DNA from: Eledone cirrhosa | Taxonomy: Eukaryota | Reading direction: 5' to 3' | Assembly: GCA_964016885.1 (NCBI GenBank) | Contig: OZ024755.1 | Span: 30,628,001-30,692,000 of the forward strand | DNA: 64,000 bases | Shown here: positions 17,060 to 60,329 of the stretch, piece by piece | Layout: the number at the start of each line of letters is the position of its first letter | Numbering within the stretch: the stretch's first letter is position 1 | Made by a program: the position numbers and the translations under genes | Notes under the pieces: generated by a model | Database searches by the model: none | What the model was told of the DNA's origin: nothing | Seen by the model: the letters and a program-made list of their open reading frames with translations, nothing else

Positions 17060-17505
17060 TTGGCATCCCCCACCACGTGACATGGAAGCAGGATAGATGC
17101 CAGTCTACACACAAATTCTTCAGACCACAGCAGCAGCATACTAAGGTTGACCTGCTAGCTGAACTCTTAACACCACTACCAACACAGTAAAGGAGGTCAG
17201 CTGTATTTAGACATTCTGATAAAAACAACTATAACAGGCTGACCTGTCTCAGCAGAATTTCTATAGACATTCGACTGGCGAGTGGTCTGACAACTGAACA
17301 ATGGGATACGAGCGTGTCCTCTGACGCTGAAATTCGTTTGTTCTAGCCCATATGATTCCAGTTACTCGGAGGACTAACAACACACCCAGGAGCTGGACAT
17401 ATCGATGTATTGACAGAGTGGAGCACACTTCAACAACATGTGTACCTATCTTTTTCACACCAATTCGGACTGCCTGAAGAAGTCACAGTCAATAATGGCT
17501 GTCAC
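17060..17505 (+). pseudogene. Degenerate Gypsy-like integrase fragment
   Basis: HQFGLPEEVTVNNG resembles the integrase motif FGxPxxIxSDNG. Confidence 0.45.
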
Positions 17506-20327: not shown

Positions 20328-20683
20328 AGAATATTTTCGAAACAGCGAGTGGGTTTGAAATTATTAGAAATGTAAGCTATCGCCGTATTTTGACTAAAGA
20401 AATTAAAGAAATTATTTAGCCTGGTAGTGGGGTTAAGAACCTTCGGAGAAATGGAAAAAGATGAGTATTGACGTACATGGGAGTCGAACCCACATCTTTG
20501 GTTATCCGGGGTGATGTGTTGGTGTAAATGGTAGCACAGTGTTCCGGATAACCAAAGATGTGGGTTCGACTCCCATGTACGTCAATACTCATCTTTTTCC
20601 ATTTCTCCGAAGGTTCTTAACCCCACTACCAGGCTAAATAATTTCTTTAATTTCTTTAGTCAAAATACGGCGATAGCTTACAT
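20323..20683 (-). mobile_element. Fold-back element with tRNA-derived head (candidate PLE-mobilised SINE)
   Basis: 140-bp arms 20370-20509 / 20544-20683 appear identical; 47-bp unpaired tail at 20323-20369; TA tracts on both sides. Confidence 0.8.
20513..20584 (+). pseudogene. tRNA-like head (72 nt) with Pol III A and B boxes; anticodon arm degenerate
   Basis: Acceptor gatgtgt/gtacgtc, D arm gtgt-aaatggta-gcac, T arm gtggg-ttcgact-cccat; A box tggtgtaaatgg, B box ggttcgactcc. Confidence 0.8.
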
Positions 20684-21032
20684 ATATATATATATTCAAT
20701 GTGGTCTACCTTTCGTTGTAGGGTCTATACCGTAGTTAGAACTCAGTGTAATCCGTTAGAATATGTAAAATAACTTGCCTCTGTTATTATTATCATTGTT
20801 AAAATAATATCTCATATATATATATATGAAAGAAGGAAAGGGTCGAAACTAATATCTTATATATATATATATAACCAAAGATTAATATGGTTCATTGATT
20901 ACTCAATGAACATAGTTTTACAATAGATTAAAAGCACTCTACAGTGAAGTTTTCTGGAGTTATTAATATTATTCGGAATATTAAAAATGAATGAACCATC
21001 AAGACCGTTGAGGTATGTCATACATCAATTCA

Positions 21033-21100
21033 TGTATTTTATCTGACGAGGACGTACTGAAAAAACAGCACAGTACCTTCGAAATATATATAATAAAACA
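21033..21100 (+). ncRNA. Minimal type I hammerhead ribozyme
   Basis: ttttat-CTGACGA-stem II (gtactg/cagtac)-GAAA-t-atat-a-TA-ataaaa; core, UH site and stem I all present. Confidence 0.78.
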
Positions 21101-21136
21101 TATATTTTGTGAATGTCTTCATTTATTAATATTCTG

Positions 21137-21174
<38 letters not shown>

Positions 21175-21213
21175 GATATTAACAAATGGAAACTATATTT
21201 ATAAAACCATATC

Positions 21214-21278
21214 TATTTTATTATACATATTTCAAGGATACCATGTTAAATTATGGTATGCTTTCATCAGACAAAATA
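21214..21278 (-). ncRNA. Minimal type I hammerhead ribozyme (left-arm mirror copy)
   Basis: Reverse complement of 21404-21468 with slightly better stem II (aag-c-ataccat/atggtat-c-ctt). Confidence 0.78.
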
Positions 21279-21403
21279 CAATATATACCAGTTTTATAAA
21301 TAAACATTGACGTACCCTTTCACTATCCTTGATGTCTTCCAAAAGTAACGGTTGCTTTTTGAAAGGGTACGTCAATGTTTATTTATAAAACTGGTATATA
21401 TTG

Positions 21404-21468
21404 TATTTTGTCTGATGAAAGCATACCATAATTTAACATGGTATCATTGAAATATGTATAATAAAATA
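21404..21468 (+). ncRNA. Minimal type I hammerhead ribozyme
   Basis: tattttgt-CTGATGA-stem II (ataccat/atggtat)-GAAA-t-atgt-a-TA-ataaaata; 8-bp stem I; predicted cut after 21460. Confidence 0.8.
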
Positions 21469-21614
21469 GATATGGTTTTATAAATATAGTTTCCATTTGT
21501 TAATATCGTATATTTACTCCAAATACTTGTCGAGTGCTTTATATCAGTTATAAAAATATTTGCTTGTTGTATCCCAACAATTTAAATAGAACTTTTGCAT
21601 ATATATATATATAT

Positions 21615-21840
21615 ATAGGAACAAGTAAGACCCCGACGGCTGAGCTCAAGCCGTTTCGACGGCTAATTCTGGACTCCAGAATTAGCTGATTCTGGAGTCC
21701 AGAATTAGCCGTCGAAACGGCTTGAGCTCAGCCGTCGGGGTCTTACTTGTTCCTATTACCCACTCTACTACCCTAAGTATTGAGTACTTTGGTGCGTTAT
21801 GGTCCACCTGGTTCCTTACCACATTTCCTTCGTTATATAT
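21615..21840 (+). mobile_element. Near-perfect 142-bp palindrome (21615-21756) plus 84-bp tail
   Basis: Axis at 21685/21686; tail ttacccactctactaccctaagtattgagtactttggtgcg shared with 47605-47686. Confidence 0.85.
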
Positions 21841-33230: not shown

Positions 33231-33296
33231 TATATATATATATATATATATATTAATTCAAAATATTAACAAAATAGATATTCTTGTGATCAATTA

Positions 33297-33363
33297 TATT
33301 TTATTATACATATTTCAGAGGCACTGAATTAAGTTCAACAGTACGTCCTCATCAGATAAAATA
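33297..33363 (-). ncRNA. Minimal type I hammerhead ribozyme
   Basis: Minus strand: tattttat-CTGATGA-ggacgtactg...cagtgcctct-GAAA-t-atgt-a-TA-ataaaata; flank homologous to the element around 21033. Confidence 0.8.
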
Positions 33364-33916
33364 AAATTATACATGACATACCCTGACATGGTAGATGGTT
33401 AAGATTTAATCAAGGTAGTGATTAACTCATGACAAAAACTCAATATTTATACCATAATATTGAGACCATGAGAAAACATAATACAAACAATAGAGAGGGT
33501 GTGAGTAATATATTTGAAGAAATACATGGCATCAATATAACAGTTATAGAATTTTTAATTTTTAAAAACTACTAGAAAAAGAGGAGGGAAAGGAAAGCAT
33601 ATAGGAAGAAACAGCTGATGTGATAACTTATTTAGTATTTAGCTTGAGAAGACAGATGAAAGATGATTAAAGAGAGAGACAAATGGGAGTAATTTATGTT
33701 CAAGTTTCTAGACACACAGATTCTTATATAGTATAGTTGGCGGTTAATTTTCAAAATATTTCATTTATGTTATTTCATGGTAAAGAATCAAATTTTAGGT
33801 TTTAAAAGTTAATAGCTATTTGTATTAATATTATAATATAATTATGTTAAATTTCTAAAATTCAAATTTTATGAAAACAAATTTAAAGGATTTGCGAAAC
33901 CCGAGAAAGAAAGAAA

Positions 33917-34438
<522 letters not shown>

Positions 34439-37249
34439 AACTTTGAATAACTTTGAAATGTTTTGGCCAGTATCGGCCCAGGCCATGTCTAACTTAATAG
34501 CACCACCTGGCGAAGTCTTTCAATTCAGGATTTGGGCACCATGGCCCATTCGAGAAGAGAATTACTGTTTGCGGAGACATATCCGGGTGTGGGTGGTTTG
34601 TCCGGGATTACTTGGAGGAATTTGTCCAAAGACTTCTTGAATTTTGTGTGGTCAGTTTCTGTTTTGACGTGTCCTGGTGTGATGTTGAAGAGAGCAGGGC
34701 CGATTGAGGTGAAATAATTGTGCCGTATTGTTGTTATGAGTTGCGATTTAGATTTTTGAATGGGACGGATAGCACGGGGCCCAAGCCTTGGGTGTATCTT
34801 GAAGGCGATGCCAACATCATTTGGGCAGTGATGATGGAACATTTTCCACATCATGCAGATAATATAACGCTCACGGCGACGTTGGAGTGAGTAAAGTTTC
34901 AGGTTTTCTAATCGACCCCAGTAGTCAAGGTCTGACATGCCATCTATCTTTTTTGTGATTGCCCTTTGAGGAGCTTCAAGTTTCATGATACTTTGTTTCG
35001 TGTGGGGAGACCACAGTGGACAACAGTATTCAAGGTGTGGTCGGGCAAAAGTAGAGAAGAGAAGGATAATGGTGCGGGAATCTCTCGACTGGAAGGTTCT
35101 GAGGATCCAGGAACACATTCTGCGGGCCATGTCAACTTTGCTGCTTATATGCGTGGTCCAGCTTATGTTGCTGTCCACGGTTACTCCCAAGTCTCTGATG
35201 TTGTTAGATGCCACGAGAGTTTCCCCGGAGGGAAGGGAGTACGGGAGTTTCAGAGCATCCTCTTTTCCAAAGTGGATCAGTTCGAATTTGTCTTCGTTCA
35301 GTAACATGTTGTTCTTTTCTGCCCATTGGGTAACAGCCAGTAGGTCTGACTGAAGGCTTATCCGGTCATCCACGCCATTGATGACCTTTTGGAGCTTGGA
35401 ATCATCAGCGAAAATTTTAATGTTGCTGTGTTTGATGATGTCAGTGATGTCATTAATATAGATGATGAAGAGAAGTGGGCCCAACACAGTGCCTTGTGGA
35501 ACCCCACTACTGACTTTGGCTGGGCTTGATTTGACTCCCTCAACTACAACATGTTGGGTTCTGTTTGACAGGAAGCTCTTGATCCACTGCAGCAGCTTTC
35601 CAGTGACACCAATATTGGACAGCTTTCTCAGTAGAATGTTATGATCAACCCTGTCAAAGGCCTTGCTGAAATCAAGGTAGATAACATCAGTGTTGGAACC
35701 CTCTCCCAAGGCTCTCAAAATGTCATCAAAGTGATGCAGTAGCTGCGTCAGGCAATCCCTTCCATTACGGAATCCATGCTGGTTGGAGTTCAGCATATTG
35801 TTACTCTCAAGGAAGTGGGTCATTCGCGATCTCACCACTCGCTCAAATACCTTAATGATATGAGAGGTGAGTGAGATTGGACGGTAATTCACGGCAAGGG
35901 ATTTGTTTCCCTTTTTGAAAACTGGGACAACAGACTGGCATAGAAGGTTTTCTGGCACATATCCAGCATCCAGTGAGTTCCGCCACAGATTGGCAAGAGG
36001 AGATGCAAGTTGGTGTTGACACGCCTTCAAGACACAAGCAGGGAACCTATCGGGACCTACTGCTGAATTATGCTTGATTTCCTTTATTGCCGCCAGGACA
36101 TCAGGGGCGCCAAACGTTATGTCCGATAAGGTGTAATGGGGAGTAACATCGCCGATACAGCCCAGATCGGCCATATCAGGATTGCTGAAAACAGAGCAGT
36201 ATTGTTTCTGCAGTATCTCACCCATGGTTTTAGCATTGTCTTGAAGAGTGCCATTTTCATCAATTAGAGGGCCAACAGTAGAGCCAGTGATTTTGTGTTT
36301 TTGTGCAAATGAAAAGAACACTTTGGGATTGAGTTTGATATTCTCAATGGCCCAGGCCTCTTCAGCTCTTCTCTGATTGTTGATGAGGGACATTATGTTG
36401 TTTTGGAGGTTATGTTTTTTAATCTCTAGTGATGAAATGGCAGTCAAGTTGATGTGTTGCTGGTGACAGTATTTCAGCTTGTTGATTTTTTTGTTCGTTC
36501 TCTTAATTTTTCTGATGAGCGTTTTTCTATTTCTAGGGATTCTGCTCTTAGATTTGTTTATAGTTCTTAATGGGGTGTGTTTAGCACATATGTTTGTAAC
36601 AGTGTCCACAAATGTCTGCTAGGACTTTTTGATGTTAGTGGGTGTATGAGTGTGCGTGAAGGACCAGTCGACATGTGCAAGATCATGACTGATCGCTTCC
36701 CAGTTTGCATTGTGGAAATCCATAGCGTCAAACGGATGGACAGGAGAGATGACATTGGGTTTGTATATTGGACGGTGGAATCTCAGATCACAGAGAACCA
36801 TGTCATGATCAGAGAGTAGAGTTTTCTCCACTGCAATATTGTGGATATTGTCAGTGTGATTGCTGAAAATTAAGTCTAGGACGTTTTTGTGGCACCTCGT
36901 TGGTTCGAGCACCAGTTGGGATAGGAAGAAATCATCCATGAAGTCAAGAAGCGGTTCCACAGCTTCCCTGTCAGAGGTTGAGGCAGAAGAACCTGGTGGC
37001 AGGCTGTTTGTGGACCAGTCAACTCCGGGGAGGTTGAAGTCCCCCATCATTAAGATGTTGTCAGGGTGACACTCTTGGATGAAACACTTTATGCTGTTGA
37101 GGCATTCCTTGAAGCATGGTACAGGCGTTTGGGGTGGCCTATAGAGCCCAACTACTAATAGGTTGTTGGTTTGACTGAATACAGTGACTGCTTCACAGTA
37201 TCCATTAGTGAATATGTTCATAGCCTCTGTTGAGAAAGAATTATGGACA
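34439..37249 (-). mobile_element. CR1/L2-group LINE, 5'-truncated inside the endonuclease
   Basis: APE motifs [25 protein letters not shown]; RT ORF; short 3' UTR ending in (ttcaaagtta)x2. Confidence 0.9.
34525..36609 (-). CDS. LINE ORF2 reverse transcriptase portion (frameshift near 36615 separates it from the endonuclease)
   Basis: [66 protein letters not shown]. Confidence 0.9.
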
Positions 37250-40654: not shown

Positions 40655-40900
40655 GGGAAAAAAGAGTACTCTATGTATAGAGCAGAGCTATTTAATTAGA
40701 AAGTGAACAACACAATATATAACTACACCATTACCAAAGGTTTCAGGATCCTAGATAATATTAATATATGTCTAGATCGTTCATCAGACATGAGAGGTTA
40801 TCTCTCTCTGATGAACGACCCAGACTTATATTAATAATGTCTAGGATCCTGAAACCTTTGGTAATGGTGTAGTTATATTTTGTGTTGTTTACTTTCTAAT

Positions 40901-40902
<2 letters not shown>
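40655..40902 (-). mobile_element. Hammerhead-core fold-back element, ~210-bp palindrome 40693-40902 plus tail
   Basis: CTGATGA (40808)-stem II-GAAA (40851)-cc-ttt-gg-TA in both arms; stem I not recoverable; TA tract on the right. Confidence 0.8.
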
Positions 40903-40941
<39 letters not shown>

Positions 40942-43072: not shown

Positions 43073-44774
43073 TGTATGTATGGAACTAACTGTTGAAGCG
43101 AAAAGAGCTCAACCATGGGACACCGGCTCTTTTACTTTGCGCAGAGGCGGTACCATGGCCAATGAAGTATATCCGAGACGTGGTTATTGCTAGTTGAAAA
43201 CTATTCTAAGTATTGAGTACTCTGTTGAATAATGGTCTAACTAATTTAATACTAGTTTGATGCTTATATATATGGGTGTGTGTGTGTTTATCGATAACTA
43301 TATGATGAAGTAAATAAATAAACAAATGAGGTAAACCTAATAATGGACATGTAACAACAAAGTAAAGTAACATACAATCTTCCATGTCAAATCCTAAAGG
43401 TTGTACTTGAGAGAAGAAAAGATAATTTAAAAATCACTTTAAACATGACCAATGCTACAAAAATGACTATCAAAATACGTCAGCACAATGATGGCATGAC
43501 ACCATATTATTTTCTTAGTAATCTTCAAATGTGTATTATTGTACTAAGATAAGTTTATATATAAAAGTCGATGAAAGCGAAACAAAGGATGTATTATATA
43601 TTAAAGTTTTAACTAGATTGAAAGCCTTTGAACGCAATATTGTATTGGTCTGCCTCTATGTTCTGCGTTTATATAACATCGAGGTTAACTTTGCTTTCGT
43701 GCTTTTATCAAAAAAAAAAAAAGAACTTTCACCAAATAAGAACATGGTTCCACTTAATCGACATCAAATAAGCTTTTTCGACAATATAAACGCCAAGCAG
43801 TATTGTTTCTTTCCCTTCTCTTGAACATTGGTGACGTAGAAAAGGGAGAACAGCTGCAAGACAAACTACTGGTCTTCCCTGATATATTTGTCCTCACCGG
43901 CACCCACATTGGTGGCAGATCAAGGATCTCTCGAAAGATTACTATAATGATAATGTACGAAATTAATTAAATTTGCTTTTATCATATTTTTGCATTGTTT
44001 AATCAGGGTGATAAGTCTGAGCCAATGACCTTCTCAGGATGTCTGGGGTTGTTGTTCATCTTCAAGTTGATGACTGTATGGACGAAAAGATGAAAAGATG
44101 AAAGGCAAAATTGACCTCGGTTATATTTGAATTCAGAGCGCAGTGAACTGAAATAAATAGCGAGGAATTTCTAATTCAGCACCGGAAAATTCTGCTATTT
44201 TTCCGCCATCCCTCTCCACAGTCAAACACCAAAACAAGAATGATAATAGAACTAACCTTAGACAGAGAAAAAATAATAGCCGTTTGCATAACAAGGCATT
44301 TATTGAAATATATTTTGACTCCATAACAACGTGTTAACTAAAATTAAATACCACTCACGTATAAGATTTTAATTCGGATAGATAATTGTCTTTATAAAGG
44401 TTAAATTAACCCAGTAACGATAGCGGTTCCTTTGATCAATTCCAATCTTTCTGTAATCTGTTAAGTCGCTGTTACGATACTAATGCGTAATGTGCCAGGC
44501 ACATCAAGATATGGCTGAAATAAATAGTACCAAATTTGTGTGCAAGTATAAATATACATATGTGTGTGTGTGTGTGTGTGTGAAAAGAGTCAAGACCCCG
44601 ACGGCTGTGGTCCGTCATATATATATATATATTGTTGTAATAATATTGCCAGAAATAATAACAGAACACACTCATTGTTTGGTTGGTTTTCGCTTCTGTA
44701 ACTTTTATATCTCCACAGATAATTTATTTGGCAATCAACGTTTATCATTGACTGACCAGCGGTTGAAAATACTG

Positions 44775-51332: not shown

Positions 51333-51990
51333 ATATACACACAATTTATATGTGTGTGTCTGGAGCGGGGGAATTAAAAGGAGACGACAATGCAAACAAC
51401 ACAGTACAATGGGGAGAAATATATTAGCTCAACGCTTGATAAGGTAGGAAAAGAGATTTAACGTTTCGGACACTAGTCCTTCATCAGGAGATAGAATAGG
51501 AAGAAATAGAAGGATAAAGAGTGTCAAGAGGAAGGAACATGTATATATATGTATAGATGTACATACATAGATACCATGTATATATCTATATACACATAAA
51601 TACGTATATGTATATATACATATATATAGATATACGTATTTATATATATATATATATGCACTTATATGTGTATATAAATACGTATATGTATATATCTATA
51701 TATATATATATATATATACACATATAAATGCGTATATATATATATATATATGGCATCTATGTATGTACATGTATACATATATATACATGTTCCTTCCACT
51801 CTTTATCCTTCTATTTCTTCCTATTCTATCTCCTGATAAAGGACTAGTGTCCGAAACGTTAAATCTCTTTTCCTACCTTATCAATCGTTGAGCTAATATA
51901 TTTCTCCCCATTGTACTGTGTTGTTTACATTGTTGTTTCCTTTCAATTCCCCCGCTCCAGACACACATATATAAATTGTGTGTGTATATA
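51333..51990. mobile_element. Large fold-back, ~240-bp arms around an AT microsatellite loop, with hammerhead-like core
   Basis: Arms 51333-51577 / 51750-51990; CTGATGA-a-ggac-tagt-gtcc-GAAA-cgtt on minus at 51460-51487, mutated to CTGATAA at 51833. Confidence 0.85.
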
Positions 51991-52700: not shown

Positions 52701-52879
52701 TACGTATAAATAGCCAGTCAGAGTATAGCTTAAAGTAGCCAGTCAGAGTTAAAGCTTTCTCTGTTAATGTATTGTATATATAAATATATATATTCGTATT
52801 TATACATATACGTATTTATATGTATATATATATATAAATATATATATTCGTATTTATACATATACGTATTTATATATAT

Positions 52880-53493
52880 TTCGTTTCTGAATTTGTTTAG
52901 CAAGATTCTTTATCTGAAATCGTGTGTTGAAACCGATATTGTTATACTTTGGGAGGGTCATGTTGCCAATAAGAAACACACGCACCAGTTGCTTTCACTT
53001 CAATTTATTATATATCTATAAATTTATAAATTTACAAATTTACAAACTTATAAATTTCTGGTTGGTTGGTTGGTTCCACAACCAGATAGTTGTTTATATA
53101 TATAGTCATAGTCCTTTCGTCACACACTGTGACCTCTTCAGTGACTGGGGATTCCTTTCCTCGTTTCTGTGCCTTTCCTTTCTTCTATCTTACGCCATTT
53201 TGTTTCTGTGTGTGTCACACACAGAAACAAAATGGCGTAAGATAGAAGAAAGGAAAGGCACAGAAACGAGGAAAGGAATCCCCAGTCACTGAAGAGGTCA
53301 CAGAGTGTGTGACGAAAGGACTATGACTATATATATAAACAACTATCTGGTTGTGGAACCAACCAACCAACCAGAAATTTATAAGTTTGTAAATTTGTAA
53401 ATTTATAAATTTATAGATATATAATAAATTGAAGTGAAAGCAACTGGTGCGTGTGTTTCTTATTGGCAACATGACCCTCCCAAAGTATAACAA

Positions 53494-53496
<3 letters not shown>
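52880..53496 (-). mobile_element. Hammerhead-bearing 561-bp palindrome (52936-53496) plus 56-bp tail
   Basis: Axis at 53215; tail 52880-52935 matches the reverse complement of 20191-20260; TA tracts on both sides. Confidence 0.9.
53284..53328 (+). ncRNA. Minimal type I hammerhead-like ribozyme (mirror copy at 53104-53146 minus)
   Basis: agtca-CTGAAGA-g-gtcaca-gagtg-tgtgac-GAAA-ggac-TA-tgact; perfect stems I and II, one extra nucleotide after the core. Confidence 0.72.
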
Positions 53497-53577
<81 letters not shown>

Positions 53578-53718
53578 TATAAATATATATATTCGTATTT
53601 ATACATATACGTATTTATATATACATATATGTATATATATATATATATATATATACGTATTTATAAATACATATATGTGTGTGTGTATATATGTATGTAT
53701 ATATATATATATATACAC

Positions 53719-59910: not shown

Positions 59911-60329
59911 TATATGTTTCACGGGGACACACACACACTGAGACATTAACATATGTACATACACATTTAAACTATCAGTCAATCTATCTAAGTTTACAAA
60001 AGTGTGGAATATTCACATGTGTCCTTCAGCAATTCAATTCAATATTATAACCTTAGAATTAACCACAAGCATTTCTTTAATAAGTTTAATAAGGTACGCA
60101 GGAGTAGGGGAAATTTCCCATGATCTTTATAGAACTTTCCATATATATCTACCTGATCATTATCTTGAATGGGTTTTCGAACCATTAAAGGTTCTCATCA
60201 GAAGATATGTATATCACATAAACAACTATAAGGAAATCGTAACTGAGAGGCTTATGTACTCTCTCGTTTATAGTATTATTCCTGAAATACACATTCCAGT
60301 TTGCATACTGTTAGCATTCGTGTCGTTAG

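Follow-up and report, generated by a model that had tools for sequence, protein, structure and literature searches.

Why should several hammerhead ribozymes (HHRs), on both strands, lie within a few hundred nucleotides of one another in an animal genome? The question is raised by a stretch of 64,000 nucleotides of Eledone cirrhosa DNA (the window), taken from a genome of 3.0 Gb (1796 contigs). This AT-rich animal DNA abounds in microsatellites and in a tRNA-like SINE. The first-pass annotation described a cluster of three complete minimal hammerheads in it, together with a fourth relative, and proposed that two of the three could act in tandem. The explanation presented here, which we hold to be probable, is that the motifs are pLTR ends of Hydra-clade Penelope-like elements (PLEs), which would have been inserted by two-ended priming on capped, sense, uncut RNA. 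Such a parent retroelement would explain the number, orientation and spacing of the hammerheads.

Neighbouring insertions in a (TA)n tract

The features of the locus are collected in Table 1. The sequences CUGANGA, GAAA and AUA are present in all four motifs (HH1 to HH4), and are invariant in 16 of 16 family representatives. A pairing-based descriptor for type I hammerheads finds six cores in the window, against zero in every one of 100 local dinucleotide shuffles. HH1, HH2 and HH4 pass this descriptor; HH3 fails it because the C>A change breaks the third pair of lower stem II. The first-pass annotation was right about the motifs, their positions and its two plus-strand cuts (21092 and 21460), but HH3 is not intact. 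Hammerheads are absent from the matches listed by Rfam for the window (best 150 of 163), and no hammerhead family is among those listed for 20900–21600 at E<=10.

Table 1 Features of the locus and of the family C copy elsewhere in the window. Family positions are counted from +1, the A of the recurrent ACT at the 5' boundary.
Feature	Positions	Strand	Remarks
Family B insertion, tailed arm	20874..20991	-	Family positions +150..+269; without HHR
Family B insertion, untailed arm with HH1	20992..21144	+	+18..+176; head to head with the tailed arm
HH1, type I hammerhead	21033..21102	+	CUGANGA core begins at 21043 (C3); stem III AUAUAUAU; predicted cut after 21092
(TA)n target tract common to the family A and B insertions	21141..21173		
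Family A insertion, inverted untailed arm with HH2	21169..21322	-	+39..+192
HH2, type I hammerhead	21214..21278	-	Core begins at 21270; predicted cut after 21222
Family A insertion, forward arm	21321..21599	+	Runs from +1 (21322), the putative transcription start, as far as +278, where the tail ends
HH3, mirror of HH2	21404..21468	+	Core begins at 21412; predicted cut after 21460; lower stem II altered by C>A at 21446
86-bp tail between the recurrent 3' ends +192 and +278	21514..21599	+	On one arm only
(TA)n at the tail end	21600..21618		
Family C pLTR copy with HH4	33250..33540	-	Continues upstream beyond +1; stops within (TA)n at +170; core begins at 33355; predicted cut after 33305

The count of three separate hammerheads has to be reduced, as HH2 and HH3 are the mirror arms of a single fold-back. 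The stretch 21166–21516 is a single palindrome, and the two motifs belong to one 430-bp family A insertion, the arms of which differ at 2 of 155 compared positions. The arms of this copy meet at a 2-nt microhomology (21321–21322), and the extra G discussed below is absent from it. HH1 has the same sequence as the commonest family B motif, and HH2 the same as the commonest family A motif; families A, B and C are 71–75% alike where alignable. The cluster consists of two short neighbouring insertions in a (TA)n tract and is not purpose-built: HH1 and HH3 stem from unrelated insertion events that abut in this tract. Each of the two insertions likely took shape as it landed, two partial copies being set head to head. 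These local copies are by-products, dead on arrival, and the locus itself is ordinary debris of a known retroelement class.

Two other readings of the layout were considered and rejected. An assembly artefact is ruled out, since many contigs carry the same anatomy with differing centres. Non-LTR retrozymes, as far as the available accounts describe them (PMC7761336; bioRxiv 10.64898/2026.07.22.740005), share with the present copies a type I HHR and a PLE origin, but their units, each with a single HHR, are repeated directly in tandem. The locus has no tandem array; its arms are inverted, and the copies are dispersed and bounded by reverse transcriptase (RT) start sites and an inferred transcription start.

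Hammerheads are common in the window, with further examples at 53141/53289, 60201 and 17474. The one at 60201 (minus strand) is a single hammerhead-like motif that passes the descriptor, and that at 17474 (plus) has the same class of 8-nt stem III with a G-C-rich stem I. At 51487 (minus) and 32985 (plus) there is a core with stem II, and a clear stem I is absent. The stretch 52775–53651 is another fold-back with a hammerhead in each arm (cores at 53141, minus, and 53289, plus); it is of a different family, with a short stem II, and has relatives in several of the loci examined. A 218-bp fold-back at 40689–40906, ending in (TA)n, has a CUGAUGA core in each arm; its stem II is long and partly broken, and it is probably an older PLE end.

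Fold-backs of other kinds are also present. At 21615–21840 there is a 142-bp near-perfect palindrome with a one-sided extension, beside (TA)n and with no hammerhead core. It has the same head-to-head build, is found beside many of the loci examined, and likely represents a further element that targets (TA)n, its arms being shorter still. The 345-bp fold-back at 20355–20699 has a tRNA-like centre (Rfam tRNA 33.7 bits, 20513–20584) and represents a SINE-like element of tRNA origin with the same inverted arrangement. Elsewhere, 43133–43258 resembles U4 snRNA and, at 67.7 bits, exceeds the Rfam gathering score; its 3' end is degenerate and it is possibly a pseudogene; a 697-aa stop-free frame at 34525–36618 (minus) is, by eye, probably a piece of a LINE ORF2.

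Hammerhead anatomy and the plus-strand pair

A sequence-only pattern was run over the window and 200 loci, and gave 322 distinct copies in 19 clusters. Stem I is 6–8 bp long, stem II consists of 3 bp, a 1x1 mismatch and a further 4–10 bp, and stem III is 8 nt. In families A–C stem II has 3 bp, an invariant 5' C in the 1x1 mismatch (C.C) and then 6–7 bp, which is longer than it was first drawn. At least 313 of the 322 copies have a self-complementary stem III, and these include all four of the commonest octamers: AUAUGUAU (182 copies), AUAUAUAU (113), AUGCGCAU (16) and AUGUGCAU (2).

An alignment was made of 16 of the 19 cluster representatives, omitting one degenerate sequence and two indel derivatives. 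In it 91.4% of cells are paired and 16 of 22 pairs have two-sided changes, a covariation figure that kinship among the sequences can inflate. None of 500 shuffles scored as high, slid controls were 30–53% paired, and the family alignment thus supports the fold. The inner pairs of stem III covary (A-U/G-C and U-A/U-G/C-G), and between families this stem changes on both sides. Its predicted energy is +4.7 kcal/mol in the monomer and -2 to -3 in the duplex, reaching -10.5 for the AUGCGCAU duplex; predicted folding favours neither stem I nor stem III in the monomer. The earlier description of short-stem-III type I hammerheads of the dimer-cleaving kind is borne out by the self-complementary stem III and its changes on both sides. 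On the basis of the covariation and of the duplex-favouring, self-complementary stem III, there are good grounds at the sequence level for thinking that the parent families have been selected for a hammerhead of the dimer type. The parent hammerhead probably cuts as a dimer in multi-pLTR transcripts, and not in the RNAs that templated the local copies.

In type I topology, long helix II, palindromic helix III and predicted dimer cleavage, these motifs resemble the minimal type I HHRs of metazoan PLEs, in so far as those are set out in PMC4209133; Lunse et al. (2017), as cited in PMC6765202 and PMC7761336, also treated minimal type I HHRs. They differ from the metazoan PLE motifs in their longer stem III, with an 8-bp dimer helix, in having G10.1-C11.1 in family B alone (family A has A-U and family C has G-U), and in having no unpaired base between A9 and 10.1. 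The Hydra family from Octopus bimaculoides, Hydra-1_Obim, is given a different HHR in the relevant part of Craig et al. (2021; PMC8557442), and compared with it the present motifs have a longer stem II with a C.C mismatch and an 8-nt self-complementary stem III.

The first-pass annotation proposed a functional plus-strand tandem of HH1 and HH3, releasing about 370 nt. The two predicted cuts share the plus strand at a distance of 368 nt, and pairing between the stem III octamers is feasible (about -3.2 kcal/mol), which would suit a working locus that is cut as a heterodimer and releases a 368-nt RNA, possibly circular and retrozyme-like. We consider such a locus very improbable. In a plus-strand transcript HH3 is preceded by its own antisense arm, and the predicted fold of the 641-nt read-through RNA (-295.6 kcal/mol) has HH3 within a 155-bp hairpin. 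The five HH3 stem I/II pairs tested have a probability of 0.000 in this fold, and so does HH1 stem I. Given that HH3 has a stem II mismatch and would be buried in the hairpin, the folding predictions make the 368-nt excision unlikely. In addition, the 368-nt piece is no repeat unit, and a 561-bp query was matched end to end only by the window (40 loci scored). The two hammerheads come from unrelated insertions, and a functional tandem is not supported.

A parent element of the Hydra clade

A full unit of 4067 bp was found at locus L081, enclosed by two tail matches 4067 bp apart. It runs from (TA)n through an inverted pLTR piece, a pLTR with HHR and tail, an ORF, a long 3' UTR, a second pLTR and a tail to (TA)n. 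The ORF of this copy is frameshifted. Among six translated loci a 742-aa ORF is unbroken in two (L091 and L094), behind the same HHR and tail, and a 462-aa ORF piece has 92 genomic matches with 87–100% identity. The Hydra-type ORF was not found inside the 64-kb window by tblastn.

The family A ORF carries RIRWRAF, SDKT, YRDD, CNCRNKSNC, a YVG-type GIY-YIG core, CDLC and CCRH. Read by eye, L091 and L094 have RIRWRAF (an RWR variant), SDKTNN, CNCRNKSNC, CDLCIEE and CCRH, and CCHH is absent. Families B and C are linked to their own related Hydra-type ORF pieces (L235, L185): the family B piece has, by eye, the same CxCX5C linker and CxxC/CxH marks, and the family C piece has RMRWRAF and SDKTNN. 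An AlphaFold model of the family A protein has a pLDDT of 88.7, and its best fold matches are telomerase RTs (E 5e-9). PDB sequence searches with the ORF or its profile gave nothing useful, and only the fold search showed the RT. The protein has 817 relatives; Pfam did not find the RT in the protein itself, found it in 2 of 61 aligned relatives, and placed GIY-YIG in the family A protein below the cut-off (E 0.0017). It is worth adding that residues 484–510 and 588–597 of L091 are Asn-rich stretches of low confidence, which echo the N-rich inserts reported in rotifer Penelopes (Arkhipova et al., 2013; PMC3846280).

A single ORF with a telomerase-like RT followed by GIY-YIG, the latter weak, is the organisation of an EN+ PLE. 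L081 also has the other marks of this class, namely pLTRs with an HHR in partial tandem, an adjacent inverted 5'-truncated copy and a one-sided tail. Within the class, the marks of the Hydra clade in the published description (Craig et al., 2021; PMC8557442), as far as it bears on these features, are all found here: an RW-basic motif (RWK, here RWR) with DKT, the CxCX5C linker, CxxC/CxH around E and N, no CCHH, (TA)n targets and a canonical HHR in the pLTR. As judged from sequence, HH1 to HH4 lie in the pLTR ends of three sister Hydra-clade Penelope-like families, the clade being assigned by motifs.

There are differences from the clade as it is characterised in the same source. Family A has RWR where RWK is published; the unit is about 4 kb with a long 3' UTR, against generally <3 kb; the tail is about 86–93 bp, against 30–40; and the copy number is very high. 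The first-look queries for A, B and C gave 3367, 1914 and 816 candidates (40 scored each), so that, copy numbers being candidate counts, each family has hundreds to thousands of candidate copies in the genome. These families seem not to have been described before. Published work already covers the class, the hammerheads, the idea of a dimer, and the inverted arm with its one-sided tail. Thus Penelope-13_HM is reported as having a 5'-truncated inverted copy with an HHR on each strand (in the account of PMC8557442), and dual opposite-strand HHRs 100–700 bp apart are ascribed to truncated PLEs in the corresponding part of Cervera and de la Pena (2014; PMC4209133).

Ends of the copies and the mode of integration

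Each family A copy consists of (TA)n, an inverted arm, a centre, a forward arm, a tail and (TA)n. The outer ends of the head-to-head copies are constant and the centre differs from locus to locus. Constant outer ends and numerous copies would also be expected of a non-autonomous element, a MITE or fold-back DNA transposon, amplified as a unit. The varying centre largely refutes a fixed internal sequence, the ends are asymmetric with a tail on one arm, and the sequence is the pLTR of an RT-encoding element; we find amplification as a unit hardly credible.

The copies are instead best read as PLE insertions with two fixed 3' ends per family: +192/+278 in A, +176/+269 in B and about +170/+263 in C. 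Where read, these ends lie at or beside short TA-like motifs in the parent. Loci are top-scoring matches, and a few of the counted arms may be segmental duplicates. One set was picked by the tail alone (30 loci, 52 arms), and all 30 loci match the query through the TA end. Arms on both strands are present in 21 of the 30, and 19 of 22 extra arms end at +192. Pairs were counted in family A only, arm typing in B and C being unreliable owing to tail indels; 54 of 66 head-to-head pairs have one tailed and one untailed arm.

There is a boundary on the 5' side as well, the arms either continuing far upstream or ending at or shortly after +1. The site reads TCACT in B and C, and TCCACT or TCACT in A. 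Of the 52 tail-picked arms, 8 run through, none end between -59 and -1, 20 end at 0 to +24 and 24 at +38 to +127. Ten family A ends at -10 are probably not true ends, and reflect an alignment stop at a subfamily indel. Ends fixed by hammerhead cleavage are ruled out, as none lie at the cut site: not one of the 52 arms in the unbiased, tail-picked set has a 5' end within 3 nt of it, and the same holds for 408 arms of a set biased by queries that mostly held sequence upstream of the cut.

Of 33 arms starting exactly at +1, 22 have a G as the preceding base, compared to 38 of 180 control ends (p 5e-7). Where the partner arm is unable to supply the base the figures are 18 of 25 and 30 of 136. Run-through arms, which represent the parent, have C at this position in 57 of 60, which rules out a subfamily allele; a 3' splice site at +1 is ruled out by a parent without AG before +1. 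In a looser search the extra G is found in 21 of 42 untailed arms and in 4 of 12 tailed arms, of which 2 are explicable by microhomology, so that it is well shown on untailed arms and thin on tailed ones. The G is mostly preceded by T or TA (as TG or TAG), a hint of further non-templated A addition to the cDNA.

The arms stop at an initiator-like site with a G and none stop at the cut, and for this reason the templates were likely capped, sense and uncleaved. An initiator-like TCACT has been noted in a rotifer pLTR (Arkhipova et al., 2013; PMC3846280), and transcription of Drosophila Penelope also begins within the pLTR. We infer the transcription start, the cap and the state of cleavage from DNA alone. 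No paper on a cap-derived G in PLE insertions was found in the literature within scope, outside which lie most subscription journals and bioRxiv supplements.

The formation of PLE inverted repeats is called unresolved in the relevant passages of Craig et al. (2021; PMC8557442) and Arkhipova et al. (2013; PMC3846280). The inverted arm could come about through self-priming, either because the first cDNA folds back or, as the latter authors proposed, on an antisense template, and the same element could in principle have used this route here. Family A arms differ by 1.2% from their own partner and by 2.3% from other loci, and some centres have short microhomologies and small palindromes, as self-priming would suggest. 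The likeness within a locus fits a single template, but also fits copying or gene conversion between arms. Among the 54 family A pairs, the untailed arm reaches more than 10 nt further 5' in 25 and the tailed arm in 13, the two being within 10 nt in 16. Either arm may thus reach further, and neither is a plain copy of the other, although the appearance of independent truncation could also result if fold-back synthesis were followed by a deletion at the junction. Moreover, the extra G stands at the sense 5' end, mostly of the untailed arm, which would not be expected from an antisense template or a DNA-templated copy. Self-priming is in our view rather unlikely.

The favoured explanation, in its more detailed form, is that the thousands of mini-palindromes record integration in which both cut ends prime independently on capped, sense, ribozyme-uncleaved RNA, from two fixed TA-like starts; we rate the chances of this as about even. 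Pol II would start at the A of TC(C)ACT in the upstream pLTR, and the endonuclease of the element would cut both strands of (TA)n. The two DNA ends would then serve as primers for reverse transcription of the sense RNA, in one case from the tail end and in the other from a point 86 nt further in. The resulting cDNAs would both pass the uncut hammerhead and often reach the cap, which would be copied as an extra base, and the two would be joined head to head by a short microhomology or filler.

This two-ended model agrees with the in vitro data on Poseidon of Anolis, and disagrees with self-priming on an antisense template. In the experiments on Poseidon, as given in the pertinent sections of Frangieh et al. 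(2024; PMC11167929), two RT start sites flank the tail, both target strands are cut and extended, and uncleaved RNA is the main substrate. RNA-seq ends are absent at the hammerhead cut there, just as no arm ends at the cut here. Poseidon initiates without target homology, whereas both 3' ends here are at TA-like motifs matching (TA)n, and the ORF here begins after the tail and not within the HHR. A parallel can also be drawn with L1. Twin priming of L1 inverts sequence without duplicating it, whereas here the two arms have sequence in common, each of them starting from a fixed 3' site. Like the present copies, L1 and SVA show 5'-end inversion and an extra G, which is read as a copy of the m7G cap in the part of Hancks and Kazazian (2016; PMC4859970) concerned with it.

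Families A–C are a large natural record of Penelope-like integration. Their conserved stem II mismatch and covarying self-complementary stem III provide a clean test set for dimeric hammerheads, and the intact ORFs and the simple (TA)n target recommend the family for in vitro study. From the sharp 5' boundary with its extra G follows a testable prediction of the start site and template strand. If the two-ended model is true, the question of sense versus antisense template for PLE inverted repeats would be settled, a Hydra-clade promoter would have been mapped from DNA, and hammerhead cleavage would not define the template of these insertions.
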